From the NCBI GenBank assembly GCA_030037955.1, contig JASHPT010000012.1, positions 2,429 through 66,428 on the forward strand: 64,000 nucleotides of DNA. Direction: 5' to 3'. Every line of letters starts with the position of its first letter. Positions within the stretch are counted from its first letter, which is position 1. This DNA comes from Thermoplasmata archaeon (lineage in GTDB: Archaea; Thermoplasmatota; Thermoplasmata; Lutacidiplasmatales; UBA184). Positions 39,810-64,000 of this stretch are shown in pieces. Position numbers and translations under genes: made by a program. The notes beneath the pieces are model-generated. The model searched no databases, had not been told where the DNA came from, and was given only the letters and a program-made list of their open reading frames with translations.

Positions 39810-40495
39810 CGCCCCGACACCGGATCGTCACCGACACGGACGTCGCGCTCCTGCAGAGCCTGGCCCACGAGCGGTCCGTGGTCGCCGCCAGCCGGAGGAT
39901 CGGCATCTCCCGGGACCGGGCCGTCTACCGGCTGTCCCGTCTCGGCCAGGCGTTCGGCGGACCGGTCGTCACCGGGGTACGGGGCGGCCGCTCGTTCGGC
40001 GGGAGCCGGCTCACGCCGCTCGGCGACCGGATCGTGCGGGAAGGGTTCGATTCGGTGGAGCTGCTCAAGGCGCGGCCGCTCGCCAACCCCTCCCGGTCGA
40101 ACCTGCTCCATGGCGTCTTCCACCCGGAGCCCTCGCCCACCGTCGTCGTCGGGCCGGGCCTCAAGCTCCGCGTCTCGTTCGTGGCCGAGGAGGCGGAGCC
40201 GGTCTCCCTGCTCCTCGACCCCGAATCGATCCTGGTCGCCCGGGGCCGATTCGCGTCGAGCGCCCGCAACGTGCTCGCCGCGGTCGTCGACGAGATCCGG
40301 CCGGGACCGGGCGCCCACGGCCGGACGGTCCTGGCCCGCGTGGGCCGCGTGTCCCTCCGGGCGTCCGTGACCGAGGAGACGGTCGCCCAGATGCGTCTCG
40401 CGCGCGGCGCGCGGGTCTTCCTGTACGTGAAGGCCACGGCCCTGCGGCGGGTCGGTCTGCCCCGGAAGGCTACTCGCGGATCCCCTCGCCGGTGA
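39806..40495 (+). CDS. ModE-like molybdate-responsive transcriptional regulator (N-terminal HTH + TOBE domains)
   Basis: [46 protein letters not shown] resembles the ModE N-terminal domain. ATGA overlap with the ATPase stop. Confidence 0.65.
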
Positions 40496-41471
40496 GCGAG
40501 AAGACGGCCTCCCCTTCGGGCAGGTTGGGAGAATCGATCAGCCGGGCGATCCGCTTGGGCGGCTTCGACTTCCGCAGGTAGACGCGGTACGTCGCGGCGT
40601 GGGCGACGATGTTGCCTCCGATCGGCCGGGTGGGGTCGCCGAAGAGGACGTCCGGACGCGCCGACACCTGGTTCGTCACGACGATGGCGGCGTTGTACGT
40701 CGTGCCGAACCGGAGCAGCTCGTGCAGGTGCCGGTTGAGGAGCTGCTGACGGGGCGCGAGCTCCCCCCGGCCGACGTACTCGCTCCGGAAGTGGGCGGTG
40801 AGCGAGTCGACCACGATCAGGCGGATCGGCCGCTCCCGGGCGAGCTCCTGCGCCTTCGCGACCAGGAGCATCTGGTGATTCGAATTGAACGCCCGGGCGA
40901 TGTGGATCTTCCCCAGGACCTCCTGCGGGTCGAGGCCCACGCCCTTGGCCATGTCGACGATCCGCTCGGGTCGGAACGTCGATTCGGTATCGATGTAGAC
41001 GGTCTCGGAGGCGAGGCCGCCCTGGTCGACCGGGAGCTGAAGGTTGACGGCGATCTGATGCGCGAGCTGGGTCTTGCCGGTCCCGAACTCGCCCGAGAAC
41101 TCGGTGATCGCCTGCGTCTCGACGCCGCCGCCCAGGAGGTCGTCGAGGGACTTGGCTCCCGTCGTGACGCGACCGAGCTTCTGACGACGCTCGAGGAGCG
41201 TGACGCCGCTCTCGAAGCCGCCGACGTCGGCCTGCCGCCGGGCCTCGGCGATGATCTTCTGCGCCGTGGCGGTGCCGATCTCGGCCGCCTCCGCGACATC
41301 GCCGGGAGAGGCCACGGCGAGCTCCATGAGGTCGGTGTATCCCGCCTCCCGGAGCTTGTCGGCAATCGCTCCCCCGACCCCGGACAGGTCCTCGAGCGCG
41401 ACGGCGGGACGCGCGTCGGCGCTCTCCTCCTCCCCGGACTCGGTGGTACGGGGCCTCGCCTTGGCGGACAC
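40470..41471 (-). CDS. radA: DNA repair and recombination protein RadA
   Basis: HhH N-terminal domain [20 protein letters not shown], Walker [11 protein letters not shown] and the RecA core. The likely GTG start gives 333 aa. The 491-aa ORF on the track over-extends upstream. Confidence 0.85.
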
Positions 41472-51577: not shown

Positions 51578-52456
51578 CTAGACCGCCGTCAGCACCTCGG
51601 CGCCGCTCGGGCCCACCAGGATCGTGTGCTCCGCCTGCGCGACCCACCCCCGACCGGTCTCCACAAAGACGGGGTAGGTCTGGAGCAGGCGTCGAGCCCC
51701 CTTGAGCGCCGCTCGCTCGGCGGGGTCCGTCACCCATCGGGTCGTGAACGGAAGGGTCCGGAAGCGAGCGAAGGCCCGGGCCAGGGCCGGGTCGCGGTTC
51801 CCGGGGTCGGCCCGAAACCGCACGATGTTGCCGAACGGCCCGTCCTCGATGTGCCCTTCTCCGTTGGTGACGAACGGCTCGATGGCCACCACCTCGCCCT
51901 CCCGGAGCGACGCGGTACTGTAGCCGCCCACGCTCGGGATGGACTTGCCCGCGTGGAGCAAGTAAGGCTCGATGCTGTGTCCCGTGAGATCGACCACGGG
52001 CTTGAACCCCTGGGCGTGCACCGCTCGCTCGATGGCCCGAGAGACCTCGTCCACGGCGCCGTTCGGCCGAACCGCCCGGATCCCGGCCTCGAGCGCCTCT
52101 CGGACGGCCCGCACCAGCCGGTCATGCTGGTGGGTCTCCCCGACCTCCACGGTCGCCGCCGTGTCGGCGATCGCGCCGTGGATATGGGCCCCGACGTCGA
52201 CCTTGAGGAGGTCGCCGGCGGCCAGCGCCACCTCGTCCGTGTCCGACGGGGTGTAATGCGCCGCCTCCCAGTTCCGGGACAGGTTCGTGGGGAAGGCCGG
52301 CTCCGCGCCGTGGCCCCGGATGTAGGCCTCGATCTGATCGGCGAGCTCCCGTCGGAGCACGCCCGGTCGGGCGAGGCGGAGGCCAAGCTCCCGAGCCTCG
52401 CCCGCGATCCGCCCGGCCCGACGCCACGCCTCGAGGTCCGCAGGGTACGGGCTCAT
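51578..52456 (-). CDS. map: methionine aminopeptidase, type II
   Basis: Pita-bread fold with metal ligands (DLLKVDVGAHIHGAIAD; HSIEPY). 292 aa, typical of archaeal MAP2. Confidence 0.85.
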   Translation of the reverse strand: MSPYPADLEAWRRAGRIAGEARELGLRLARPGVLRRELADQIEAYIRGHGAEPAFPTNLSRNWEAAHYTPSDTDEVALAAGDLLKVDVGAHIHGAIADTAATVEVGETHQHDRLVRAVREALEAGIRAVRPNGAVDEVSRAIERAVHAQGFKPVVDLTGHSIEPYLLHAGKSIPSVGGYSTASLREGEVVAIEPFVTNGEGHIEDGPFGNIVRFRADPGNRDPALARAFARFRTLPFTTRWVTDPAERAALKGARRLLQTYPVFVETGRGWVAQAEHTILVGPSGAEVLTAV

Positions 52457-52462
52457 GCGCGG

Positions 52463-53029
52463 TCAGCTCCGCCGGAGCACGGTCGGCCGGTTCCCCGTGA
52501 GCACCACGATCGTGGACGGTCGTCCGGACGGCGACGGCGCGCCAGAGAGGTAGGCACCGACCTCCGAACCGAAGATCCGACGACCGTCCCGGACCGACCG
52601 ACACGGGGGTTCTCCGTGTCGGTTCGCCGAGGTCGTTGTCAGCGGGCCCGTACGCGCGAGGAGGGCGCGGGCCGTCGGGTGGTCCGGGATCCGGATCCCG
52701 ACGGTCCCCGTCTCGCCGAGCACGGAGGGGACCCACCGGCGACGCGCCCGGGCGCTGGCCGGCAGCAGGAACGTGTACGGTCCTGGGAGGGTGCGACGCA
52801 GGAGACTCCGAGCACCGGGGGTCATGCGAACGAACGGCTCGGCCTCTTCGTAGGACGAGAAGGCGACCGAGACCGGCATGCCCTCGGGTCGGCGCTTCGC
52901 CGCATACAGGCGACGGACCGCGCTCGAGTCCGTGGGCCGTACCCCGAGGCCCCAGAGCGTGTCCGTCGGGTAGAGGATCGGCGTACCGGCTCGGACCGCG
53001 CGGACGGCGACGGCAATCCCGTCCGGCAT
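52463..53029 (-). CDS. L-threonylcarbamoyladenylate synthase (Sua5/YrdC/TsaC family)
   Basis: YPTDTLWGLG, LPGPYTFLL and TSANRHGEPP motifs. The start MPDGIAVAV... was found by codon count (M36 of the 223-aa ORF). Confidence 0.8.
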   Translation of the reverse strand: MPDGIAVAVRAVRAGTPILYPTDTLWGLGVRPTDSSAVRRLYAAKRRPEGMPVSVAFSSYEEAEPFVRMTPGARSLLRRTLPGPYTFLLPASARARRRWVPSVLGETGTVGIRIPDHPTARALLARTGPLTTTSANRHGEPPCRSVRDGRRIFGSEVGAYLSGAPSPSGRPSTIVVLTGNRPTVLRRS

Positions 53030-53033
53030 CGGT

Positions 53034-53492
53034 TCAGAAGAACTCCTGCTCCGCCCGGGCGTAGGAGTGGAAATCGTCCGGACGGAAGAACAGGGCGAGC
53101 TCGCGGTCCGCCGACGCGGGAGAGTCGGAGGCATGGATGAGGTTCGGCGTCATCGCGATGGCGAGGTCGCCCCGAACCGTTCCCGGCGCCGCGGTTGCCG
53201 GATTGGTGGCTCCGATCAACAGGCGGACCACCGCGATCGCGCCCCGGCCCTCGACGGCCAGGGCCAGGACGGGGCCGCTCGTGATGTGCCGGACCAGCCC
53301 CTCGTAGAACGGCTTCCCCACGTGTTCTGCGTAGTGCCGGCCGGCGAGGTCGGCCGAGACCCGCAGGAGCCGCGCCGCGACGATCGTGAGACCCTTGCGC
53401 TCGAGGCGGCCCACGATCTCCCCGGACAGCCCGCGCTTGACGGCGTCCGGCTTGAGGAGAACCAGCGTCCTCTCCGTTCCCGCTTCCGGCAT
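53034..53492 (-). CDS. ndk: nucleoside diphosphate kinase
   Basis: [16 protein letters not shown]...NLIHASDS (catalytic His). 152 aa after choosing M72 of the 223-aa ORF. Confidence 0.9.
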
Positions 53493-53550
53493 CGTCGCTG
53501 GTAGGGGTGCGCCGACAAAAGCTTTGACGCGCGCACGGTCCGCCGAGCCG

Positions 53551-54327
53551 GTGCCCATCGAGCGGAGTGCCCGCGTGGGATTCGACCGTGCGGCGGACCG
53601 GTACGAACGCAGCCGGCCGCAAGCGCCACCCGAGGCCATCGAGGCCTTGGTGGCTACGCTCGGGCTGACCCTGCGCTCGACCGTACTCGAGCTGGGTGCG
53701 GGCACGGGAAAGTTCGCGCGGCTCCTGGCGCCGCATGCCGGGCGGTACCTCGCACTCGAACCGGTCCCGGGGATGCGGGCCCAGTTTCACCGGAGCCTCC
53801 CGGGCATTCCGCTGGTCGCCGCCGTGGCGGAGAGAGTGCCTGTCCGGACCGGCCGGGTCGACGCGGTCGTCGCCGTTCAGGCCTTCCACTGGTTCGATGC
53901 GGCCCGGGCGATGCGGGAGATGCATCGGGTGCTGCGGCCCGAGGGCCAGGTCGCGCTCCTCTGGAACACGCGGGACGAATCGGTCGATTGGGTGCATCAG
54001 GCGACCCTCATCCTCGACCGGTACGAGGAGGGTAGCCCGCGGCAATCCCGGGCGGGTTGGCGGCGGTCGTGGTCCGAGAACCCCGGATTCACGCCGCTGG
54101 AGGAGCGCCGGTTCTCGTTCGTCCAGTCGCTGGACCGGGCCACCACGATCGACCGCTTCCTGTCGGTCAGCTTCATCGCCAGCTTGGACGGGCCCCGGCA
54201 CGCCGAGGCCGAAGCCGCCTTCGAACGACTCCTCGACACCCATCCCCAGACGGCGGGGCGGCAGGTGATCGAGCACCCATACCGGTGTGAGGTCTACACC
54301 GCGCGTCGGCTTCCGGACGCGAACTAG
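53551..54327 (+). CDS. class I SAM-dependent methyltransferase (Methyltransf_11-like)
   Basis: [11 protein letters not shown] motif I and [11 protein letters not shown]. The start is uncertain (GTG candidates ~53551 or 53572). It is oppositely oriented to the flanking minus-strand genes. Confidence 0.65.
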
Positions 54328-54836
54328 ATCGCCGCCCGGTCACAGGTCGCATTCCAGGGACATCGGCCGCACCGTCCCCGACTCGGGGTGGCCCGGCCAT
54401 CGTAGACCATCGTCATCTCCCGGCGCAGGTCCAGGAGCTCCGCGCGCAGGACGCCGTTCCACTCGACCCGAATCTCGGTCCCGTCTCCGTAGCGAAGAAG
54501 ACCGTACGGAGGGGGCCGCCCGGTCCACTCCTCGACGAGGAGACAGTACGCGGCCACCTGCATCCGGTGAGAGAACGGCGGCCCGGACCGGGGGGCCGGA
54601 CGTGACTTGAACTCGACCGGAACCCACCGCCCATCGGGCCGCTGCCGGATCTCGTCCGGCCGGCCCGCCAGCGCGTAGCGGGACGACCGAAGGAGTCGCC
54701 CGGGAGACGAGGGCAGGTCCGACTGCACCAGCCGTCCCTCCCTCCGGAGCCGGTGGCTTCGGACGGCGACGAACGTGCCGCCGATCAGCAACGCGCCGCC
54801 GACGAGGAACAGCAGGTCGGCGAGACCGACCGTCAC
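54324..54836 (-). CDS. Cas4/DUF83-like RecB-family nuclease, C-terminal part (TM helix + motifs II, III, QxxxY + CxxCx5C)
   Basis: Putative GTG start at 54836, overlapping the upstream stop as GTGA. Product (M)TVGLADLLFLVGGALLIGGTFVAVRS...GRPDEIRQRPDGRWVPVEFKS...QVAAYCLL...CGRCPWNATC. Confidence 0.5.
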   Translation of the reverse strand: MTVGLADLLFLVGGALLIGGTFVAVRSHRLRREGRLVQSDLPSSPGRLLRSSRYALAGRPDEIRQRPDGRWVPVEFKSRPAPRSGPPFSHRMQVAAYCLLVEEWTGRPPPYGLLRYGDGTEIRVEWNGVLRAELLDLRREMTMVYDGRATPSRGRCGRCPWNATCDRAAI

Positions 54837-55078
54837 AGTCCGCTCCCGAGGGCCCAGGCGAGTACGCAGAGCAGTATCCCCAGACCGAGCAGCCACCACA
54901 CCCAGCCGCCGCGGCCTTCCCAGCGGAGGCGCGACGTCAATTCCCGTTCGTGCACGAGACTCCCTCGGGAACGTGCCTCGATGCTCGCACGGGTCGGCCC
55001 GAGCGGCGGGGGGTGACGGCGGTACCAGAACGCCCGCGGACAGTACGCGTACTCCGCGAGGTCGCTGACGCTCACCCA
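54833..55078 (-). CDS. Cas4/DUF83-like nuclease, N-terminal part (YCPR Cys1 motif) ending in a hydrophobic helix
   Basis: (M)SVSDLAEYAYCPRAFWYRR...SLVHERELTSRLRW..., then GWVWWLLGLGILLCVLAWALGSGL and stop. The GTG start at 55078 avoids overlap with the upstream gene. The ORF-track ATG is at 55111. Confidence 0.45.
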   Translation of the reverse strand, partial: WVSVSDLAEYAYCPRAFWYRRHPPPLGPTRASIEARSRGSLVHERELTSRLRWEGRGGWVWWLLGLGILLCVLAWALGSGL

Positions 55079-56466
55079 CCCGGCGGTGTGGGGAGGGGAG
55101 GCGCCGCCCATGCGGGTCGCTCGGAGCCTGTGGCGCCTTCAAACCGGGGGGTGGAGTGGAAGCTGTCGGAGGGTGGGTCGGGGGCGGGGCCCGGCCGGGT
55201 GGGCCCGGGCCCGGGAGCGGCGCTCGCGCCCCGGCCCGGGAATTGCGGCGACCACTCCCGCAGGATGAGGATCAGGAGCGCGAGGAGGCCGACGCCGAAG
55301 AGGCCGCCCAGGCCCTCGGAGAATCCGCAGGCGCCGCTCTGCTGGCACATCGGGAGCGCCACCGTCGCGTCGAGGATCCCCACCGCGCCCAGGGCGAAGA
55401 GCCACCGGCCATACGCGGGTCCGAGGAGCGCGACCGGTACGAGCCAGATGAGGAAGTTCTCCGTGAACCGCTGCGCCACGAGCGCGACGATGACGGTGAG
55501 GAGGGCGACCGCCGGAACGGCCGACCAGCGTCGGAGATGCACGAACACGATCCCGGCGAGGAGCGCGAGCCCCTGGACCGCGATGAGCACGTCGGACGGC
55601 GGCATCATGTGAAGCGGGATCAGGACGCCGAACTCGTTGATCGAAAGGTCGGCGCGGGTCAGCTGCTGACTGAACAGCAGGCTGTAGGCGTAGTTGCCCC
55701 AGACGAGGCCCACCATGAGGCTGAGTCCGCCGAACACCACGATCGAGATCGCGAGCTCGCGCCAACGGACCCGGCCCGTTCCCGAGAGACCGCCCCAGAA
55801 CGGGAACAGCGACGGAAACTTCACCGTGGAGAGCAGCCCCGCCACGGCGCCGGCGGCCGGATTGCGACGGAGCGCCAGCCAGATCCCGAGCAGGGCCGTG
55901 ACCGGAACGATCGCGCTGTGACCCCCCTGGATCGACCCGACCACCAGCGGAGCAAACACCGGCGTGGTCGCCACGACGAGCGTCGCATACCACCGCTCCC
56001 GGACCGCCAGCGCCCAGGTCAGCGGGATCAGGCTGAGCGCGACGGCATTCCACACCAGCCAGATGCCGACCCGTCCCCCGAGGCTGCCGAGCGCGTCGAG
56101 GAGTACCGACGCGATCCCGTACGGAACGTGCACGGAGTGACCGCACTGGAACGTGACGAACGGATTGATCCCGGCGAGGAGGTTCTGCCCGGACTGCAGC
56201 AAGGCGAGCGTGTCGTCCTCCCCGGCCGAGCAGGGGATCGGTGCGGACTGGATCCAGGCCGCCAGCACGAAGACCACGCCCAGCACGACGGCCACGACCC
56301 GCCAATCCCACGGGATCCTCCGGAGGGAGCCGAGCGGCCGGACGAGGACGCGGTCTACCGCGGCACGGAATGCGGCTGCCCGGGGCCAGCCGTAGAGGAG
56401 CACCAACCCGCCGACGACACCGGCGACGAGCTCGGGCGCCGACGCCGCGAGAACCGAGGAGGTCAA
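55072..56466 (-). CDS. polytopic integral membrane protein, GT-C-like glycosyltransferase (DUF2029/GT87-like) suspected
   Basis: ~11 TM helices. Acidic EDD motif in the first extracytoplasmic loop (SAGEDDTLALL). Pro/Gly-rich C-terminal tail. Confidence 0.6.
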   Translation of the reverse strand: MTSSVLAASAPELVAGVVGGLVLLYGWPRAAAFRAAVDRVLVRPLGSLRRIPWDWRVVAVVLGVVFVLAAWIQSAPIPCSAGEDDTLALLQSGQNLLAGINPFVTFQCGHSVHVPYGIASVLLDALGSLGGRVGIWLVWNAVALSLIPLTWALAVRERWYATLVVATTPVFAPLVVGSIQGGHSAIVPVTALLGIWLALRRNPAAGAVAGLLSTVKFPSLFPFWGGLSGTGRVRWRELAISIVVFGGLSLMVGLVWGNYAYSLLFSQQLTRADLSINEFGVLIPLHMMPPSDVLIAVQGLALLAGIVFVHLRRWSAVPAVALLTVIVALVAQRFTENFLIWLVPVALLGPAYGRWLFALGAVGILDATVALPMCQQSGACGFSEGLGGLFGVGLLALLILILREWSPQFPGRGASAAPGPGPTRPGPAPDPPSDSFHSTPRFEGATGSERPAWAAPPLPTPPGG

Positions 56467-56528
56467 CGTTCACCCAGCAGTGGGGCGGTCCATACGACTT
56501 CCGCTCGCCCCTCTCGGGGGACCCTCCG

Positions 56529-56903
56529 TTACGTTGCGGGCTCGGTCGCGGCAGGCTTCTTGGGTCGCGGCTTCTTGGCCGGCGCCGCGGCCCCGGCCGG
56601 TGGGGTGGACTTCGGCTGGGCAGCCTTCTTGGGCGTCGGCTTCGTGCCCGCCTTCCCAGGCTTGGGCGCCGCCGGCGCTGGAGCGGCCTCGGACGTCGGC
56701 TGGCGGCGTTGTTCCGCGAGCCGCTTGAGCTCGTGCGCCCGGGTCCAGCGAAGCCGGTGGCCCACGCGACCGAGACCCAGCTGCTGCTTGCGGCACGACG
56801 AGGAGCAGAAGGCGAAGAGCGAGCCGTCCCGCTTGACGAACAGCTGGCCGGTGCCGGGTTCGATCTCCCCCGCGCAGAAGGAGCAGGTACGGTGGACGAC
56901 CAT
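56529..56903 (-). CDS. rpl24e: 50S ribosomal protein L24e
   Basis: RTCSFCAGEIEPGTGQLFVKRDGSLFAFCSSSCRK zinc-ribbon signature. Lys/Pro/Ala-rich tail. Confidence 0.9.
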   Translation of the reverse strand: MVVHRTCSFCAGEIEPGTGQLFVKRDGSLFAFCSSSCRKQQLGLGRVGHRLRWTRAHELKRLAEQRRQPTSEAAPAPAAPKPGKAGTKPTPKKAAQPKSTPPAGAAAPAKKPRPKKPAATEPAT

Positions 56904-56916
56904 CGGCGGAGCGGCC

Positions 56917-57132
56917 TCACCGCACCGACAGCTTGCGCGCTTCTCGGGCGGTCTCGCGCAGGACGAGTACGTCGCCGACGCGGATCGGTCCCATCACGTT
57001 GCGCGCGATGATCTTTCCGCGGTCCCGACCGGCGAGGACGCGGACCTTGACCTGGGTGGCCTCTCCGGCCATCCCCGTGCGGCCCACGAGCTCCACGACC
57101 TCCGCCGGGGAGCCCTTGTCTTCCTCCGCCAT
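56917..57132 (-). CDS. rps28e: 30S ribosomal protein S28e
   Basis: 71 aa [25 protein letters not shown]...[21 protein letters not shown]. Confidence 0.9.
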
Positions 57133-57163
57133 CGTCCGTCCCTCGGGTCGAGCTCGAGTCCCG

Positions 57164-57535
57164 TTACTTCTTGAGCGTCGCGAAGGCGCCGGTGAGCTCG
57201 TCGAGGATTCCCTTCGCCTCGCCGGCGTCGACCACGGCGACGCTCGCCGCCGACTTGGTGAGTCCGGCGGCCTGGCCGAGCCGCTGCTTCTTGGACACGT
57301 ACAGGTACGGGATCCGCTTCTCCTCGCAGAGCATCGGGATGTGGGCGAGGATCTCGATCGGGTCGACGTCCTCGGCCATCACGACCAGCTTGGCCTCGAC
57401 GCGTTCGCTCGCCTTCGTTACCTCGTTCGTCCCGATGCGGACCTTCCCGGTCTCCCGGGCGATCTGCACGAGCTGGAGGGCCTTGTCGGCGATTTCGGCG
57501 GGAGTCTCGAACCGGATATAGATCGCTCGCGTCAT
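57164..57535 (-). CDS. rpl7ae: 50S ribosomal protein L7Ae (K-turn binding)
   Basis: 123 aa with the ...[29 protein letters not shown]...IPYLYV signature. Confidence 0.9.
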
Positions 57536-57651
57536 GCTTGCCTCGCGTCAGCGGGAACCCGAGCGGGGTCCCTCGGCTCACGGGTGGAACGGTCGCTACG
57601 GCTCACGATATTTAACCCTGACATCCGCGCTCGCCCCGCGGCGGTCCAGCG

Positions 57652-58701
57652 CTACGGAAGGAGCGAGCCGGGGATGCTGCCGGGATGCTCGGCGAAGAAG
57701 CGCTTCGCCGGCTCCGTGACCCGCGCCAGGCCGGCCGCGACGGCCGCCTTGAGGTCCTGGGGATGCAGCGCACCGGACCGCCAGACCTTGAGGAACTCCT
57801 CCTCGCCGACGAGGTCGAGGGACCCGCCGTGCTTCGGGGCCCGGTCGACCGCGAGGTGGCCCTCCCACGGGATCACGACGTACCGTGCGAGCTCGACGAC
57901 CGGATTGCCGTCCACCTCCTTGGCGGGACAGTACGCCGCCGCCAGCCGGTCCGCGATGAGCTCGGGCTCGGCGTGGATCGGGATGCCGGCGTCCGGGTCG
58001 GACTTCGACATCTTCTTCTCGACGGTCAGGGACTCCGGGTCCATCCGGCCTCCTCCCTTGAGCGACGACACGAGCGGGGTGTGCACCCCGATCGGCACCG
58101 GCCACCGGTAGTGGTGCGCGACCTCGCGGGCCAGCACGTGCGCCCGGCGCTGGTCGACGCCGGCATAGGCGATATCGACGGGAAGCTGGAAGATGTCGGC
58201 GGCCTGCATCGAGGGGTAGAACAGCTTCGCCGTGTCGAGGTTCGCCTCCTCTTCGCCACGCCCCATGATCGGCAGGGCTCTCCGGGACCGTGCGAGGGAG
58301 GTCGCCTTCGCGACCCGGACCACCCGGTCCCAGTAGCCGGGCTCGGCCTGCAGCTCCTGAGCCCAGCGGAACCGCGTGCGCGCGGGGTCGACCCCGAGGG
58401 CGATGAACGCCTCCTGCATGTAGCGCCCGGCGTCCCGAATCCGATCCAGCGACCCGTCCAGCTTGTCGTTGATCCAGGCGTGCCAGTCGGCCAGGAATAC
58501 CGTGAGCTGGCAGCCGGCGTCCGTGAGGTCCCGCATCTTCCGCGCGGTGACCAGATGCCCGACGTGCAGGAGGCCGGAGGGCTCGAAGCCGATGTAGGCC
58601 CGGGGCGCCGACTCTCGCTCGAAGAGCGGCCGGAGCTCCTCCGGGGTCAGGACCTCCGCGGTGTTCCGAACGATGCGGGCGACGCGCTCGTCGAGGTCCA
58701 C
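57652..58701 (-). CDS. tyrS: tyrosine--tRNA ligase (archaeal type)
   Basis: AYIGFEPSGLLHVGH (HIGH) and KMSKS motifs. GTG start at 58701 (349 aa), 21-29 nt downstream of the TATA cataaatag. The ORF-track start at 58800 is over-extended. Confidence 0.85.
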   Translation of the reverse strand: MDLDERVARIVRNTAEVLTPEELRPLFERESAPRAYIGFEPSGLLHVGHLVTARKMRDLTDAGCQLTVFLADWHAWINDKLDGSLDRIRDAGRYMQEAFIALGVDPARTRFRWAQELQAEPGYWDRVVRVAKATSLARSRRALPIMGRGEEEANLDTAKLFYPSMQAADIFQLPVDIAYAGVDQRRAHVLAREVAHHYRWPVPIGVHTPLVSSLKGGGRMDPESLTVEKKMSKSDPDAGIPIHAEPELIADRLAAAYCPAKEVDGNPVVELARYVVIPWEGHLAVDRAPKHGGSLDLVGEEEFLKVWRSGALHPQDLKAAVAAGLARVTEPAKRFFAEHPGSIPGSLLP

Positions 58702-58721
58702 GTTTGCGCGAGGAACCGCGG

Positions 58722-58730
58722 CTCTATTTA
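58722..58730. promoter_or_regulatory. shared/bidirectional TATA element (ctctattta / taaatagag) between tyrS and the HExxH gene
   Basis: The only AT-rich element in the 52-nt divergent spacer. It lies 21-29 nt from the tyrS GTG (58701) and ~27 nt from the plus-strand ATG (58753), implying leaderless mRNAs on both sides. Confidence 0.5.
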
Positions 58731-58752
58731 TGCCCCCATGTTGAAACCCCCG

Positions 58753-59310
58753 ATGGGTCCCGAACTTTCTCCGACCCGCCGACTTTTGCGCTGGCCCCAC
58801 GCGCGCGAGCTTCTGGGGCCGGTCGCCCAGGTGTCCGCGGAGTTTCCAGAGCTCGTCGGCCTCCGCGTCCGGGTCGACCTACTGCCCTGGGGGTCGCGGC
58901 GGCTCGGCGCTGCCTCGATCCTCGAGCGGCCCCCGCGGGTCGCCTTCCACCCGGAGCTGGCACGTCGACCCGAAGAGCTGGCCGCGACCGCCGCCCACGA
59001 GTTCATGCATCTCCTCCAGTGGCCGCTCCAGCGGATTCCGAACGGGGAACGGGCCTGCGACCTGTTCGTGCTCGCACGATTCGGGACCCGGTTCCAGGGC
59101 CCTCCATACTACCTGCATGTCCCCCGTCGTGCCCGGACCCACTGGGCCGAGTGGGCTCCCCTCGCCCAGGAGCTCGCCGTACGGGCCCTCGACGAACGCC
59201 GTCAGGGACGGCGCCAGTATCTTCGGTGGTGGGAGGAGGAGTTCCGGTCCCGGATCCCCCCGGCGGTGTCGGGCGGCTGGGCCCCCGGTCTCTCCCTGGC
59301 GCCGGGGTAA
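58753..59310 (+). CDS. putative zinc metallopeptidase (HExxH motif; SprT/DUF45-like)
   Basis: AAHEFMHLLQW motif. ATG at 58753 (MGPELSP...), ~27 nt downstream of the shared TATA ctctattta. An alternative ATG lies at 58738. It is the C-terminal part of the otherwise antisense 541-aa ORF on the track. Confidence 0.45.
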   Translation: MGPELSPTRRLLRWPHARELLGPVAQVSAEFPELVGLRVRVDLLPWGSRRLGAASILERPPRVAFHPELARRPEELAATAAHEFMHLLQWPLQRIPNGERACDLFVLARFGTRFQGPPYYLHVPRRARTHWAEWAPLAQELAVRALDERRQGRRQYLRWWEEEFRSRIPPAVSGGWAPGLSLAPG

Positions 59311-59372
59311 GGACGCCGCCGACCGCCCACAGGTCTTAAAGTCGGTCGCCGCCCTTGTAACGGTGCTCTCGG

Positions 59373-61508
59373 ATGACCGACTCGACGGACGCCTCGGCCG
59401 AGACGGCCCCACCCCGCGACGAGGCCGGCTCTGAGCCCGCGAAGGACCGGAAGCCCGACCCCGACACGTCGGAGACCTCCCCTCCGAGCGGGGAGCGGAT
59501 CGTCGAGAAGTGGATGGCGACGGTGGGCAAGGCCGAGCGGCCCAAGCGCCACCGGATCGCCACCCCGACCAAGGGCTCGACCGACGTGCTCCGAAAGTGG
59601 GTCGAAGGCGACGATTCCGTCCTCGAGACCTGGATCCAGTCCTCCGAGCCGGCCCCGGTGCCGACGGCCCCGACCCCCGCGATCGCCGAGGAGCTCGGGA
59701 TGCCCGCGTTGCCGGCCGTCGGTCCGATCCCCTCCTCGACGGTCCCCGGGGAGCGCGCGGCTCCCGGGGGTCCGAGCACGACCACGAGCGAGCGCGAGGT
59801 GACCCTCGTCCGCTGGCTCACCGACCTGCTCGACCGCGTGAAGTCGGACCAGTTCGACCCGCACTCCCTCGTCGAAGAGCTGCAGGACATCCAGCGGCAG
59901 CTGTACGACGAGCGCCAGAAGCGGAAGCAGATGGAGGAGGAGCTGGAGCACGTCAAGCGCGGCTCCATCGCCGTCATCAAGTACGTCCGGAACCGGGAGG
60001 CCAAGGCGCGGGAGCAGCTCGTCCAGGAGATGGAGGGCCGGATCTCGGAGCTCCAGATGGCCCTCGACCGCACCGGCGCGGACATCGCGCCGGCGGCCGC
60101 CGCTCCCGTCGTGCCCGCGGCCGTCCCCGGGGTCGAGGCCCCGTCGGGAGAAGGGCCGACGCGGGAGTCGGAGGCCCGGATCCGGCAGGAGTTCGCCGAG
60201 CGGGAGCACGGTTACATCGACCGCGAAACGGAGCTCCGCCGCCGCCAGATCCAGCTCGAGGAGGAGATCCGGAACCTCCGGTCCGAGCTCGACCTCTCGA
60301 AGAAGCGACTCGACAGCGTCGGCGCCGATGAACGGTCGATCACGGAGTCCCTCCAGTCCCGCCTGAACACCGCCGACATGCGCGAGCGCGAGCTCGCCCG
60401 ACGGGAGAACGAGCTCCGCACGAAGTTCGAGGAGATCCGGCTCCAGACCGAGGACATCGAGCGTCGTCGCGCGCCGCTCGAGTTCAAGGAGAAGGAGCTC
60501 CAGGTCTGGGACCAGGAGCTGCGGATCCAGAAGGAGTCCGTCCAGGTCCAGCAGCGCCGTCTCGAGGAGGCCCGGCTCGCCGGAGAATCGATGGAGTCGG
60601 CGGAGAAGTCGAAGCGCCTCGCCGAGCTCCAGACGGAGGTCACGAAGAAGGAGGAGGAGCTCCGCGCCCGCGAGGCGTTCATGCACCAGCGGATGCAGGA
60701 GCTCGAGGGACTGGAGCGGAAGGCCGCCGAGGCGGACGCCGACCGGTCGCAGGCCGAGGTCACCGCCGCCGCGAGCACGAAGAAGGCGCGCACCGGTGTT
60801 CGCCGGCTGGACGACCTCCTGTTCGGCGGGATCCCGCTCGGCTCGCAGCTCCTGGTCAACGGTCCGGCGCACACCGGCAAGGAGGTGCTGGCCCGGGCCT
60901 TCGCGACCGAGGGACTGCGGAACGGCGGCGGCGTGATCTGGGTGCTGACGGACAAGACCTACCAGACCGTCCGCGAGGAGTCGACCGAGTTCCTCCCGAA
61001 CTACCTCGAGTTGGAGCAGAAGGGGCTCGTCAAGTACCTCGACCTCTACTCGCGGAGCCTCGGCCTGACCGAGGGGGAGCGCAACGCGATCCTGCTCTCG
61101 CTCACCGACAAGGGCGCGATCGACACCCTGACGGCGCGCGTGAACGAGTTCGCCCTGGAGTTCCGCCAGAAGTCCATCCCGTACCGGCTCGTCTTCGAGT
61201 CGGTCTCGACCCTGACGGCCTACCTCGACACGGCCGCGACGTTCCGGTTCCTGCAGCCGTTCGTCGGCCGTCGGAAGGTCGATGGCGCGGCCGGCTACTA
61301 CCTCATCGAGACCGGCATGCACAGCGAGGCCGACCTGCGGACCCTCGAGCACATGATGGATGGGTCGATCAACCTCAAGATCGACCAGCTGAAGAATTTC
61401 CTGTCCGTCCGGGGCATCACCGACGTCCAGTCCCGGGCCTGGGTCGGCTACACGTTCACGAAGCGCGCCTTCTCGCTGGGCTCGTTCTCCCTCGACCACA
61501 TCCGGTAA
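59373..61508 (+). CDS. long coiled-coil protein with C-terminal KaiC/RecA-superfamily ATPase-like domain (degenerate Walker A GPAHTGKE)
   Basis: N-terminal acidic and Pro-rich low-complexity region. About 300 aa of heptad-rich Glu/Arg/Lys/Leu/Gln coiled coil. Then RRLDDLLFGGIPLGSQLLVNGPAHTGKEVLARAFATEG...VIWVLTD (KaiC-like fold, COG0467-like). Confidence 0.75.
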   Translation: MTDSTDASAETAPPRDEAGSEPAKDRKPDPDTSETSPPSGERIVEKWMATVGKAERPKRHRIATPTKGSTDVLRKWVEGDDSVLETWIQSSEPAPVPTAPTPAIAEELGMPALPAVGPIPSSTVPGERAAPGGPSTTTSEREVTLVRWLTDLLDRVKSDQFDPHSLVEELQDIQRQLYDERQKRKQMEEELEHVKRGSIAVIKYVRNREAKAREQLVQEMEGRISELQMALDRTGADIAPAAAAPVVPAAVPGVEAPSGEGPTRESEARIRQEFAEREHGYIDRETELRRRQIQLEEEIRNLRSELDLSKKRLDSVGADERSITESLQSRLNTADMRERELARRENELRTKFEEIRLQTEDIERRRAPLEFKEKELQVWDQELRIQKESVQVQQRRLEEARLAGESMESAEKSKRLAELQTEVTKKEEELRAREAFMHQRMQELEGLERKAAEADADRSQAEVTAAASTKKARTGVRRLDDLLFGGIPLGSQLLVNGPAHTGKEVLARAFATEGLRNGGGVIWVLTDKTYQTVREESTEFLPNYLELEQKGLVKYLDLYSRSLGLTEGERNAILLSLTDKGAIDTLTARVNEFALEFRQKSIPYRLVFESVSTLTAYLDTAATFRFLQPFVGRRKVDGAAGYYLIETGMHSEADLRTLEHMMDGSINLKIDQLKNFLSVRGITDVQSRAWVGYTFTKRAFSLGSFSLDHIR

Positions 61509-61540
61509 GTACCGGCGCCGCCGTCGGCGCCCGGACACAA

Positions 61541-61958: not shown

Positions 61959-64000
61959 CTACGAGGGCGGTGGGGGCGGCGGAGGAGCTCCTCCGCCCGC
62001 GCCCGGAGGCACTCCTCCGGAGGCTCCCGCGGGTGGCGCGCCGGTGCCTGCCGCGCCTCCGCCCTGCCAGGCCTGGGGCGCCGGGGCAGGCTTCTTGCGG
62101 CGGGTCAGGAGCACCGCGAGCAGGATCACGATGACCGCGGCGATCACGCCGAGCAGCAGGTAGCCGGTGTCGCCGGAGAGGCCCAGGAAGCCGGTCGACG
62201 GCGCCGTCGACACCGTGATCTCGACCGCGGTGCTGGTCGCCGAGGCGCCGTTCGAGTCGGTCACCGTCGCGGTCACGTTGTAGCTGCCGGCTTTCGACGG
62301 CACGCAGGTGATCGAGGCGGCGTTCGAGGTCGTGCATCCCGTCGGGAGACCGGCCCACGCGTAGCTGTCTCCGCCGGAGCCGCCCGAGGCGGTCACGGTG
62401 AGCTTGAAGCTCGAGCCCGTCGTTCCTGACGAGGGCGCGGCGGTCGGCGCACCGATCGTGAGCGTCGGCGACACGGTGTAGCTGAACGCCGGGCTCGCGC
62501 CGGTCCCTCCGACGCTGTCGGTGACGGTCACTCCGAGGGAGAGCGCACCGGACGTGGTGAACGTGCACTGGACCGAGACGCCGGTCGGCGCGCCGCAGCC
62601 CGCTGGGAGGCCGGACCAGGCGTAGGTGAAGCCGGGGGTGCCGCCGCTCGGCGTGGCGCTCGTGAACGTGACGGTCTGCCCGACGTCGGCGCCCGACTTG
62701 GACGCCGTGATCGCCCCGACGGTCGGGAGCGGGTTCACCGCGAACGACAGCGAGGCGGACGCGTTCTGGGGGTAGGCGTCCGACGCGTTGACGCTGACCG
62801 TGTAGGTACCGACCGTGCTGGGCGTGCAGGCCACGCCGGCGGCCTCGGAGTTCGTGCAACCGGGCGGGAGCGCCGTCCAGTTGTAGGAGTAGGTTCCCTC
62901 GCCTCCGTAGGCCGTCGCGTTGAAGGTCGCGGCGAGACCGACGTCGGTCGCTCCGGAGGGAGTCGAGCTGACGGTCACCGTCACCGGGTCGGTCTGCAGG
63001 GCCACGATCCACGTGTTCCAGAGAGGGTCGGTGCCGACATACTCGCCCACCAGGTAGGCGACGGAGGAGGTCGGGTCGATCGCCCCGCCGGCATAGAGCC
63101 CCCAGTCGGCGTTGGTGGTGTACGAGGAGCTGTACATCGGCGCTCCGTAGCCGTTCGCGACCGTGTAGGGCTCGCCCGCGGACTGTCCGAAGGCGAACAT
63201 CCCCGGGTAGTAACTCGAGCTGCCGAAGGTCGAGATGATGGTGAGGTCGCCGCGGCTGTCCATCGCCATCGCGGGTACGATCAGGTCGGTCCCATCGAGG
63301 TAGACCTCCAGGTCCTGCCAGAGCGTTCCGTTCGAGGGCCAGCCCTGGTCGACCCGGACGGCGTCTTCCTCACCGTTGTAGGCATCCCAGACGCTCGAGA
63401 CGAGTCCGTTCTGCTGGTACGAGGAATCGATCGCCTGGGGAGTGCCGCCGTACAGGGTGTCGCCGGTCCCGTATTGCTCCACATCCTCCGGCGCCGCGTA
63501 GGGTCCCGTCGTCTCCATGTCGGTCTCGACGAACGTGGTCATGCCCGGCGGTGCATCGGTGACGTTCCAGGTGTCGTAGTATCCGATCGGATTGACGACA
63601 GCGAAGTACTGGCTCGGCGACTGCGTCAGCCCCTGGGTCGCCACGAAGTTGGGGACGAAGTCCCAACCGTCCGCGGAGTTCCAGTTGTCGTAGGACGTCT
63701 CCTCCCCGGCCTGCAGCTCCGTGTAGTTCAGCACCCAGAGATTGCTCTGGTAATCGCCCGTCGTCTCGTTGTAGTCGTCCAGACCGACGCCGACCATGAA
63801 CTCGCTCGTGCCGATGGTCGGGTAGTACGGGTACTCCTCCGACGGAGCGGGGATGCCCTCGTACTGCTCCCAGTCGCCGAGCGGGTTGGACGTGTCCGAC
63901 ACGGCGATCATCCAGGTGTCGGCGCTCTCGTCCGACGCCGAGGTGATCCACCGGCCGGTGAAGTTGTCGTACAGGATGTATGGGGTGATGATGAAGTCGG
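61959..64000 (-). CDS. cell-surface protein with three tandem PKD/Ig-like repeats, C-terminal TM anchor and Gly/Pro-rich cytoplasmic tail; 5' end lies beyond window
   Basis: The ORF-track start is M at 63911. The same frame stays open upstream to position 64000 (...DFIITPYILYDNFTGRWITSASDESADTWMIAVSD...), so the gene is partial. Repeats of ~87 aa (TYSYNWTALPPGC / FTYAWSGLPAGC / DSYAWAGLPTGC) at ~62210-63000. TM LLLGVIAAVIVILLAVLL, then a GGGAAGTGAPP...PPPPPPPS tail. Confidence 0.75.
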   Translation of the reverse strand, partial: DFIITPYILYDNFTGRWITSASDESADTWMIAVSDTSNPLGDWEQYEGIPAPSEEYPYYPTIGTSEFMVGVGLDDYNETTGDYQSNLWVLNYTELQAGEETSYDNWNSADGWDFVPNFVATQGLTQSPSQYFAVVNPIGYYDTWNVTDAPPGMTTFVETDMETTGPYAAPEDVEQYGTGDTLYGGTPQAIDSSYQQNGLVSSVWDAYNGEEDAVRVDQGWPSNGTLWQDLEVYLDGTDLIVPAMAMDSRGDLTIISTFGSSSYYPGMFAFGQSAGEPYTVANGYGAPMYSSSYTTNADWGLYAGGAIDPTSSVAYLVGEYVGTDPLWNTWIVALQTDPVTVTVSSTPSGATDVGLAATFNATAYGGEGTYSYNWTALPPGCTNSEAAGVACTPSTVGTYTVSVNASDAYPQNASASLSFAVNPLPTVGAITASKSGADVGQTVTFTSATPSGGTPGFTYAWSGLPAGCGAPTGVSVQCTFTTSGALSLGVTVTDSVGGTGASPAFSYTVSPTLTIGAPTAAPSSGTTGSSFKLTVTASGGSGGDSYAWAGLPTGCTTSNAASITCVPSKAGSYNVTATVTDSNGASATSTAVEITVSTAPSTGFLGLSGDTGYLLLGVIAAVIVILLAVLLTRRKKPAPAPQAWQGGGAAGTGAPPAGASGGVPPGAGGGAPPPPPPPS
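62210..63000 (-). repeat. three tandem in-frame ~260-nt coding repeats (PKD-like domains) within the surface-protein gene
   Basis: Protein-level repeat units with a conserved Y-x-W-x-G/A-L-P-x-G-C core and a T-V-T/S-D-S-x-G signature. Confidence 0.55.

Follow-up and report, generated by a model that had tools for sequence, protein, structure and literature searches.

What is the function of an archaeal protein that joins long heptad-periodic helices to a KaiC-like domain whose catalytic residues are exchanged? This question is raised by a gene in a window of 64,000 nucleotides from a Thermoplasmata archaeon of the order Lutacidiplasmatales (UBA184; assembly GCA_030037955.1, contig JASHPT010000012.1, positions 2,429 to 66,428). 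The open reading frame (ORF) at 59373..61508 on the forward strand starts with ATG and encodes a protein of 711 amino acids (aa), for which the word "giant", used in a preliminary description of the window, is too strong. The gene is real, conserved and uncharacterised, and comes from soil Thermoplasmata archaea. Its product belongs to a well-defined, uncharacterised Thermoplasmatota family, whose C-terminal domain falls within the KaiC/RecA superfamily and DUF7504 and fits the concept of "inactivated KaiC-like ATPase domains" (iKaiC). The protein is probably not a clock or motor ATPase. We tentatively propose that it forms a ring or hub of inactivated KaiC domains on a coiled-coil stalk and would serve as a scaffold or tether without enzymatic activity, perhaps connected with DNA or RNA. 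Few protein modules of archaea have expanded as much as KaiC-like domains, and few are as poorly understood; in this family, which is clear-cut and strongly conserved, the P-loop persists while every Mg2+-binding or water-activating residue is exchanged.

A KaiC-like domain with a remodelled nucleotide site

The C-terminal part of the protein is a single KaiC/RecA-fold domain, as the preliminary description had proposed. The Pfam KaiC model (PF06745) matches aa 473-675 with an E-value of 4.7e-18 (65.8 bits, cut-off 26.6), and DUF7504 (PF24336) matches with an E-value of 1.8e-10 (42 bits, cut-off 27) over positions 1-178 of the 179 in the model. DUF7504 is also matched by all 29 orthologues scanned, and relatives carry the label "DUF7504 family protein" at NCBI. 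Among PDB sequences, phmmer matched KaiC (4e-13) and PH0284 (8e-11). In an AlphaFold2 (AF2) model built on an 81-sequence alignment, the predicted local distance difference test (pLDDT) exceeds 90 over aa 470-711, and Foldseek aligns the model with KaiC CI and CII and with PH0284 (PDB 2dr3) at E ~1e-14 and a template modelling (TM) score of ~0.8. Matches above curated cut-offs and a superposable RecA-like core thus place the domain in the KaiC/RecA superfamily. The NCBIfam models for archaeal KaiC-type proteins, ArlH/FlaH and RadB all score below threshold. Coordinates and mean identities, computed per region against 118 homologues, are collected in Table 1.

The closest solved structure, PH0284, shares 23% identity with the domain over ~240 aligned residues, and its entry 2dr3 was deposited with six chains, A-F. 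PH0284, PH0186 and SSO2452 are single-domain proteins like the C-terminus of the window protein, but they are stand-alone proteins of ~240 aa with canonical GK[ST] and Walker B motifs, to which the window protein adds 468 upstream residues and altered catalytic residues. The fold is homologous to that of KaiC by the sequence match above, but cyanobacterial and Rhodobacter KaiC contain tandem CI and CII domains, canonical Walker A and B motifs, a catalytic Glu-Glu pair, phosphorylation sites and the partners KaiB and KaiA, whereas the window protein has one domain, a ~280-aa N-terminal coiled coil and a remodelled site, and no kaiB. Identity as a circadian KaiC was rejected on these grounds and on the NCBIfam circ_KaiC score (28.5 bits versus 546). 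ArlH (FlaH) of the archaellum motor also has a single KaiC-like domain, which binds nucleotide and acts through oligomerisation and partner binding (PMC5019145; bioRxiv 10.1101/2021.03.19.436134), but it differs from the window protein in its canonical P-loop, the lack of a coiled coil and its arl operon. The ArlH model NF052589 reaches 17.9 bits versus 215, and there are no arl genes near the target gene. The Lutacidiplasmatales (TMEG), acid-soil archaea with ~69% GC and genomes of ~2.1 Mb, are reported to be without archaellum genes (PMC9287336), so an archaellum role is unlikely and the ArlH assignment was rejected.

Three catalytic sites of KaiC are disrupted in the window protein. In a profile alignment, Walker A G-T-G-K-T of KaiC becomes G-K-E504, the catalytic F-E-E-S becomes T526-D527-K528, and V-V-I-D-S of Walker B becomes L-V-F-E609-S. 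The unusual Walker A, GPAHTGKE, had been pointed out before, together with the prediction of impaired or altered hydrolysis, and both claims hold up when the family is considered as a whole. We scanned 1.84 billion cluster representatives exhaustively by HMMER with the domain alone, which gave 1966 matches (113 below 1e-30), and took a census of residues in 140 diverse representative domains. The P-loop GxxxxGK is retained (G497 in 135, G502 in 137, K503 in 130). The residue after GK is Glu in 102 and Asp in 14, that is, acidic in 116 of the 140, and it is Ser in only 6 and Thr in 3. At the position of the first catalytic Glu there are 79 Asp, 24 Ser, 13 Asn and 3 Glu, and at the second 56 Lys and 32 Arg. 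The Walker B Asp position holds Arg (33), Leu (26), Glu (15), Asp (15) or Phe (8); it is acidic in only 30 domains, and loss of the Walker B Asp amounts to ~80%. The canonical residue set as a whole is found in none of the 140. D557 is kept in 139 and H650 in 101. The trans-acting Lys/Arg positions of KaiC, K-L-R-G, read S-V-R-G in the window protein and are variable across the family. We note that Lys or Arg at the catalytic or Walker B positions accompanies an acidic residue after GK in 78% of cases, versus 63% without one; this difference is unconvincing as salt-bridge co-variation and was not used.

Since the deviant motifs are conserved themselves and no other part of the protein is as well conserved as the domain (mean identity 0.70), the active site appears to have been remodelled under selection rather than to have decayed. 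Such a pattern is the signature, at the sequence level, of strong selection for something besides conventional Mg-ATP hydrolysis. KaiC-like Mg-ATP turnover by the domain is unlikely; it may still bind a nucleotide or a phosphate ligand, or be purely structural. Because the Mg2+-binding and water-activating residues are replaced, we read the domain as an "inactivated KaiC" module. As described in a passage of PMC5847659 (citing Makarova et al. 2017), iKaiC domains are a recognised archaeal module in signalling proteins; by that description GK-E, T-D-K and F-E-S are three disrupted catalytic sites, and they are disrupted family-wide. The window protein resembles iKaiC/DUF7504 proteins in its single KaiC-fold domain, disrupted catalytic motifs, variable N-terminal modules and restriction to archaea. 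Its subfamily differs from them in the signature GPx[FHY]xGK[ED], T-D-[KR], a variable Walker B and an extreme C-terminal GSFxL[DE][HR]IR, as well as in the coiled-coil stalk and N-terminal Trp-acidic motifs. The iKaiC concept reportedly goes back to a survey of archaeal KaiC-like proteins by Makarova, Galperin and Koonin, published in mBio in 2017. In the searchable literature we found no publication on DUF7504, on the subfamily signature or on the stalk architecture, and no study of any family member, although the 2017 survey may already list such fusions.

The conserved P-loop raises an alternative, in which the protein is an active nucleotide-driven switch or autokinase of an archaeal KaiC-like signalling network. 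The Glu or Asp after GK would coordinate Mg2+, D527 and E609 would be catalytic, and the coiled coil would transmit a conformational signal as in Rhodobacter KaiC, which is regulated by coiled-coil register shifts in R. sphaeroides (PMC10076222). The strong conservation of the P-loop Lys, D557 and H650 in the most constrained part of the protein would fit such a switch, and so would the acidic residues that the window clade retains at the catalytic and Walker B positions. A stand-alone relative (P0222) is encoded in an operon with Roadblock/LC7, V4R and KaiC plus small-GTPase genes, which is typical of KaiC signalling hubs. However, most family members have Arg, Leu, Phe or Met at the Walker B position, just 3 of 140 have Glu at the catalytic Glu position, and none has the canonical constellation. 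The protein has a single domain and not CI plus CII, and neither KaiB, KaiA nor another signalling partner adjoins the gene in the 80 related loci described below. We therefore consider an active switch unlikely. Should the domain hydrolyse ATP with a carboxylate where Walker A normally supplies a hydroxyl, the mechanism would interest P-loop enzymologists.

A functional parallel to an inactive ring may be Elp4/5/6 (PAXNEB), in which a RecA-fold ring is a non-catalytic scaffold and for which there is a weak match over the P-loop region (28.3 versus 28 bits). This match covers only ~60 residues, and Elp456 differs in being eukaryotic and in lacking the P-loop Lys and the coiled coil.

The predicted coiled-coil stalk and the N-terminal motifs

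Upstream of the domain, the AF2 model and the heptad analysis agree on long helices with coiled-coil character. The mean heptad score over aa 160-465 is 4.39, versus 2.82 +/- 0.26 in composition-matched shuffles (~6 standard deviations), and a heptad-register script found that aa 164-197, 281-367, 373-401 and 410-445 exceed the 99.9% level of shuffled sequence. The preliminary description had placed ~300 aa of coiled coil in one run. The heptad-rich helix stands, with ~280 residues of heptad periodicity, but it is divided into two blocks, CC1 and CC2, by a flexible Ala/Pro-rich linker, and the second block continues straight into the C-terminal domain. CC1 contains the nearly invariant segment E192-R206, EHVKRGSIAVIKYVR, and the invariant VRWLTxLLDRV and FDP at aa 146-163. 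In PDB profile searches, CC1 and the N-terminal motifs gave only generic coiled-coil matches (SMC, E 0.05). The assignment to SMC or Rad50-type proteins was rejected, since SMC_prok_B scores 10 bits versus 567 through the coiled coil alone and the globular domain is of the RecA/KaiC type, not ABC.

The N-terminal region had been described as ~190 aa of acidic, Pro-rich disorder. Disorder is indeed predicted by AF2 at aa 1-37, 53-67 and 97-135 (and again in the linker at aa 238-260), but conserved helices are predicted at aa 40-52, 68-77 and 81-91 with pLDDT 71-87, the protein is helical from aa 136, and most orthologues carry an (HhH)2 domain at this end. The conserved block at aa 38-92 contains a basic patch and a Trp-acidic motif. 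In the homologue alignment (A1), W76, V77, G79, D80, D81, E85, W87 and I88 are invariant, and the pattern K/R-W-V-x-G-D-D...E-x-W-I spans aa 75-88. Even at an identity of just 40-57% in the C-terminal domain, relatives keep the Trp-acidic motif as L[KR][KR]W[LV]xG[DE][DE]xx[LF]xxW[LI], at times duplicated, and also keep the CC1 motif EHV[KR][KR]G[ST][IV]AVIKY. Short conserved N-terminal motifs within otherwise disordered sequence resemble docking peptides, and by this analogy the block at aa 38-92 is a probable docking motif. Pfam gave no N-terminal match in the window protein.

An N-terminal extension had been thought unusual for an archaeal KaiC-like protein; within this domain family it is the rule. 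In 89 of 142 representative clusters the domain is preceded by 200 aa or more; 81 of these 89 long members contain at least 56 heptad-scoring residues, with a coiled coil within 150 aa of the domain in 76. In most relatives a coiled coil immediately precedes the domain, and many have tips of a nucleic-acid-binding type (HhH or zinc ribbon); the distribution suggests that coiled coil plus domain is the ancestral architecture. The domain itself invariably lies at the C-terminal end of the protein (median number of residues beyond it, 0). Its last residues are strongly kept across the 140 relatives (S704 in 115, F705 in 128, I710 in 121, Arg or Lys at 711 in 117).

Most orthologues are 745-796 aa long and start with an extra ~60-residue domain of the pattern ELARxLGIGxxxAxxLxxAGYxTxExVRxLSxxxLxxLGV. 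Its profile matches topoisomerase V (HhH)2 (4.5e-14) and the HhH extension that archaeal eL32 carries (1e-6); the matches to the Rad51/RadA N-terminal domain (0.006-0.1) and to uS13 are weaker. Pfam HHH_5 matches several members. In the window protein and its nearest relatives (~710 aa) this domain has been lost: the HhH block is missing from their part of the alignment and the tail of aa 1-37 stands in its place, while the remainder of the protein and the genomic position are retained. When 62 diverse long members were scanned against Pfam, the only families found besides KaiC, DUF7504 and DUF7090 were HhH families (best E 7e-13) and zinc ribbons, both N-terminal, and one member combines zinc ribbon, HhH, coiled coil and domain.

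These tips bring RadA to mind. RadA/Rad51 shares the RecA-superfamily core, and most orthologues of the window protein start with (HhH)2 as RadA does; but the core of the window protein is nearer to KaiC, the HhH and core of the orthologues are ~450 residues apart, separated by linkers and coiled coil, and the window protein is without HhH. One could suppose a RadA-paralogue-like factor of DNA repair, recombination or chromosome tethering, in which a coiled-coil arm would link a DNA-binding (HhH)2 or zinc-ribbon tip to a RecA-fold hub with affinity for DNA or RadA. The pattern GIGxxxAxxLxxAGYxT...LxxLGV is similar to the RadA/Rad51 N-terminal domain, zinc ribbon and HhH recur in distant members, the profile matches SSO2452, a KaiC-like RadA paralogue, at 3e-17, and the conserved basic patch is kept in the window protein. 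We regard such a factor as quite unlikely, as the window clade lost HhH yet kept everything else including its genomic position, the HhH profile is far closer to topoisomerase V and ribosomal-protein HhH than to RadA, and the neighbourhood is without repair genes. Alignment of the orthologue HhH domain with the N-terminal domain of the RadA encoded in the window by hhalign gave a probability of 12%, so its identification as a RadA N-terminal domain was rejected and a generic (HhH)2 domain is the better description. RadA or RadB identity of the whole protein was likewise rejected (RadB 15.2 bits versus 278; no HhH; a separate canonical RadA). The latter, whose N-terminal domain is of the HhH type and which has the polymerisation motif GFESG and Walker A GEFGTGKT, shows that the organism has a normal RadA besides the KaiC-like protein, and it was the only paralogue of the target found within the window, as a weak match.

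A coiled coil of this length could also belong to a self-assembling cytoskeletal filament protein, comparable to bacterial coiled-coil-rich proteins, in which the KaiC-like end merely caps or bundles. The preliminary description had put forward a scaffolding or a cytoskeletal role, of which this is the second. The extent of heptad-periodic helix, the inactivated ATPase site and the conserved, single-copy gene in a housekeeping-type context would be compatible with a filament. On the sequence evidence we nevertheless judge it highly improbable: the rod is short and broken by flexible Pro/Ala linkers, conservation peaks in the globular domain and the short N-terminal motifs and not in the rod, and the Glu/Arg/Lys-rich sequence may give single helices or short dimers.

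KaiC, PH0284 and ArlH form hexamers. By analogy, the C-terminal domain of the window protein probably oligomerises into a ring, and the invariant tail GSFSLDHIR may contribute to ring assembly. The two-block coiled coil would project from this hub and expose the Trp-acidic and basic motifs of the N-terminus to a partner, together with the nucleic-acid-binding (HhH)2 domain in most orthologues and with a zinc ribbon in some distant relatives. R. sphaeroides KaiC is, to our knowledge, the only characterised KaiC with a coiled coil. In that protein a C-terminal extension of ~50 aa forms a coiled coil, a 12-helix bundle that joins two hexamers and stabilises and regulates the assembly (PMC10076222). 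The window protein has the reverse topology, and its coiled coil is far longer.

We thus infer oligomerisation, loss of hydrolysis and a scaffold or tether role from fold, motifs and architecture, and we hold the inactivated hub on a stalk to be a possible reading of the protein, with several points that weigh against it. The helices are rich in Glu and Arg, and AF2 cannot distinguish a dimeric coiled coil from single stable helices. HhH is missing in the window protein, so the nucleic-acid link rests on the orthologues and the basic patch. A conserved operon partner was looked for and not found: when the neighbours in the window were compared with the 80 loci by tblastn, only the TyrRS/L7Ae-S28e-L24e synteny described below emerged. 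Direct coordination of Mg2+ by the carboxylate after GK is conceivable, and with E609 and D527 remaining in the clade, hydrolysis could be slow or regulated. The strictly kept P-loop Lys, together with D557 and H650, argues that a ligand is still bound. If the reading is true, it would add to the structural uses known for the RecA fold in prokaryotes, and the motifs GK[DE], KWVxGDD, KRGSIAVIKY and GSFxLxxIR provide a set for experiments. A bolder version, which we consider very unlikely, would be a Thermoplasmatota-wide hub-and-spoke organiser not recognised before: a dead KaiC-fold ring locked by the GSF..IR tail, with coiled-coil arms tipped with (HhH)2 or zinc ribbon and Trp-acidic docking peptides, which would hold nucleic acid in place or condense it, or else bring in a partner machine, as a RecA-fold answer to an SMC/Rad50-type job.

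Table 1 Features of the target gene and of its surroundings in the window. Residues refer to the 711-aa protein, identities are means and pLDDT values are from the AF2 model.
Feature	Residues	Coordinates	Strand	Remarks
TATA-like AT island TTAAAG		59336..59341	+	37 nt 5' of ATG; candidate own promoter
Acidic, poorly conserved, disordered N-terminal tail	1-37	59373..59483	+	pLDDT <50; identity 0.22
Conserved block: basic patch ERPKRHR and Trp-acidic helices DVLRKWVEGDDSVLETWIQSSE	38-92	59484..59648	+	identity 0.60
Pro-rich disordered linker	93-135	59649..59777	+	pLDDT <50 over aa 97-135; identity 0.20
CC1, first helical/coiled-coil block, with invariant EHVKRGSIAVIKYVR and VRWLTDLLDRVKSDQFDP	136-237	59778..60083	+	AF2 helices 136-157 and 163-237 (pLDDT ~85-93); identity 0.67
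EHVKRGSIAVIKYVR within CC1	192-206	59946-59990	+	almost entirely invariant
Ala/Pro-rich flexible linker between helical blocks	238-262	60084..60158	+	pLDDT <50 over aa 238-260; identity 0.20; length varies among homologues
CC2, second, long coiled-coil block	263-468	60159..60776	+	AF2 helices 261-318, 325-403 and 408-468; identity 0.53
KaiC/RecA-fold domain (PF06745/DUF7504), remodelled nucleotide site	469-711	60777..61505	+	identity 0.70, highest in the protein
Walker A GPAHTGKE, Glu for Ser/Thr	497-504	60861..60884	+	GP[AST]H[TS]GK[DE] in 116/118 full-length homologues
T526-D527-K528 at the KaiC catalytic Glu-Glu (F-E-E-S) position	526-528	60948..60956	+	profile alignment "vltdkt" versus KaiC "VTFEES"
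Walker B strand YRLVFES, Glu609 for Asp	604-610	61182..61202	+	aligned to KaiC "KRVVIDS"; E609 invariant in the order
C-terminal tail LGSFSLDHIR, end of the protein		61476..61505	+	invariant within the order; candidate inter-subunit contact
Canonical RadA		40470-41471	-
Order-wide synteny block		51578-58800		ends at the target gene
Cas4-like nuclease		54324-55142	-
Ribosomal protein L24e		56529-56903	-	124 aa
HEFMH ORF		~58768-59310	+	~180 aa; between TyrRS and target
Antisense ORF spanning the target gene		59202-61538	-	778 aa
Secreted/surface protein		61959-63911	-	650 aa; convergent to the target

Distribution and genomic context of the gene

A search of 5.8 billion proteins gave 441 homologues. 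The best 120 of these 441 are colinear with the window protein, with 50-99% identity, 90-100% coverage and lengths of mostly 649-796 aa, and all are from Thermoplasmata metagenome-assembled genomes (MAGs) in independent NCBI, JGI, ENA and Logan assemblies. In the species genomes of GTDB we found 177 relatives, from which 80 loci in 80 different MAGs were retained, including Thermoplasmata archaeon UBA184 and Candidatus Lutacidiplasma silvani; the gene is single copy in at least 80 species-level genomes. Named family members are all from MAGs of Thermoplasmata, Thermoplasmatota or "Euryarchaeota", except one partial protein labelled Actinomycetota. The tyrosyl-tRNA synthetase gene (TyrRS) is the divergent neighbour in 76 of the 80 loci, with L7Ae-S28e-L24e beyond it; the remaining four contigs end upstream of the gene, so that the adjacency holds in 76 of 76 testable loci. 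The protein belongs to the core set of Lutacidiplasmatales (UBA184/TMEG) Thermoplasmata and is inherited vertically; these acid-soil archaea are abundant and uncultured, and the family extends over more than 100 sequence clusters across Thermoplasmatota.

These data also bear on whether the fusion might be an artefact of assembly or annotation, or the gene a decaying pseudogene. The sole hint of decay is the unusual Walker A. Colinear full-length homologues with the same fusion, which had been suggested as a check, are present in more than 100 independent assemblies and, with the conserved synteny, exclude the misassembly that the preliminary description had considered. The sequence at the junction of coiled coil and domain, KVRTGVRRLDDL, is highly conserved, the reading frame is intact with a G+C content at third codon positions (GC3) of 0.95, and the deviant motifs are conserved themselves. 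The probability of an artefact or pseudogene is therefore negligible. In this window of ~70% GC throughout, an antisense ORF spans the entire target gene, but its GC3 is 0.69, which identifies the forward frame as the coding one; the antisense ORF is a high-GC shadow ORF and no gene, like many long shadow ORFs across the region.

The spacer upstream of the gene, also of 70% GC, contains TTAAAG as its sole AT-rich hexamer. In the five closest loci (L001-L005), CTTAA[AG] is kept at an identical position, as is a CCCTTGTAAC-like box downstream of it. The position of CTTAA[AG] 37 nt before the ATG and its conservation suggest that the gene has its own, putative promoter, with a predicted transcription start ~10 nt before the ATG.

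The neighbourhood of the gene consists of TyrRS, ribosomal protein genes, a small ORF with an HExxH motif and surface proteins. Clustering of the ORFs 3' of the gene in the 80 loci gave only variable convergent surface-protein genes and high-GC shadow ORFs, and no KaiB-like gene was found in their conserved context. The gene contexts of five distant relatives have nothing consistently in common. A PADLOC search for anti-phage defence returned only LmuB at the level of the coiled coil (E 3e-4) and nothing for the upstream ORF, so a defence role is unsupported.

Distant relatives and neighbouring genes

Other members of the wider domain family occur in different settings. There are short stand-alone relatives; one of them, P0222, is 246 aa long, has GPPFIGKE with the Walker B Asp present, and is encoded in the operon Roadblock/LC7 - V4R - KaiC+Arf/Ras-like GTPase - KaiC-like (L086:567-3362), which links the wider family to proposed archaeal KaiC signalling networks. 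In the metagenomic protein P0177 (1257 aa), the same C-terminal domain, with a GPPFCGKQ variant, stands behind an HD-CE domain and an nSTAND1 NTPase in one protein, an architecture typical of conflict or signalling systems. In another Thermoplasmatota lineage (L081:8001-13443), an M54 metallopeptidase gene is followed by two tandem paralogues (1062 and 628 aa), an arrangement that hints at hetero-oligomeric assemblies.

The M54 archaemetzincin gene of L081 occupies the upstream position that corresponds to the HEFMH ORF of the window. This ORF, named after its HEFMH (HExxH) metalloprotease-like motif, lies on the strand of the target gene; it was found in only 8 of the 80 related loci and had no match in Pfam, NCBIfam, PADLOC or PDB. 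The synteny block that terminates at the target gene has the order MetAP - Sua5/YrdC - (NDK) - SAM methyltransferase - Cas4-like - (membrane protein) - L24e - S28e - L7Ae - TyrRS. Its Cas4-like gene encodes a RecB-family PD-(D/E)XK nuclease with a C-terminal Cys cluster (TIGR00372, 50 bits versus a cut-off of 65), which is without CRISPR context and is found in the same block in 46 of the 80 loci. On the other side of the target gene, the secreted or surface protein contains Ig/PKD-like modules, repeated and rich in Thr/Ser, together with a transmembrane helix at the C-terminus and a tail rich in Pro and Gly, and has no NCBIfam match; different large surface proteins occupy its position in related genomes, which marks this region as variable. 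The L24e protein of the block is about twice the usual length, as it carries a long C-terminal Lys/Pro/Ala-rich extension (...APKPGKAGTKPTPKKAAQPKSTPPAGAAAPAKKPRPKKPAATEPAT) similar to histone-H1-like AKP tails.

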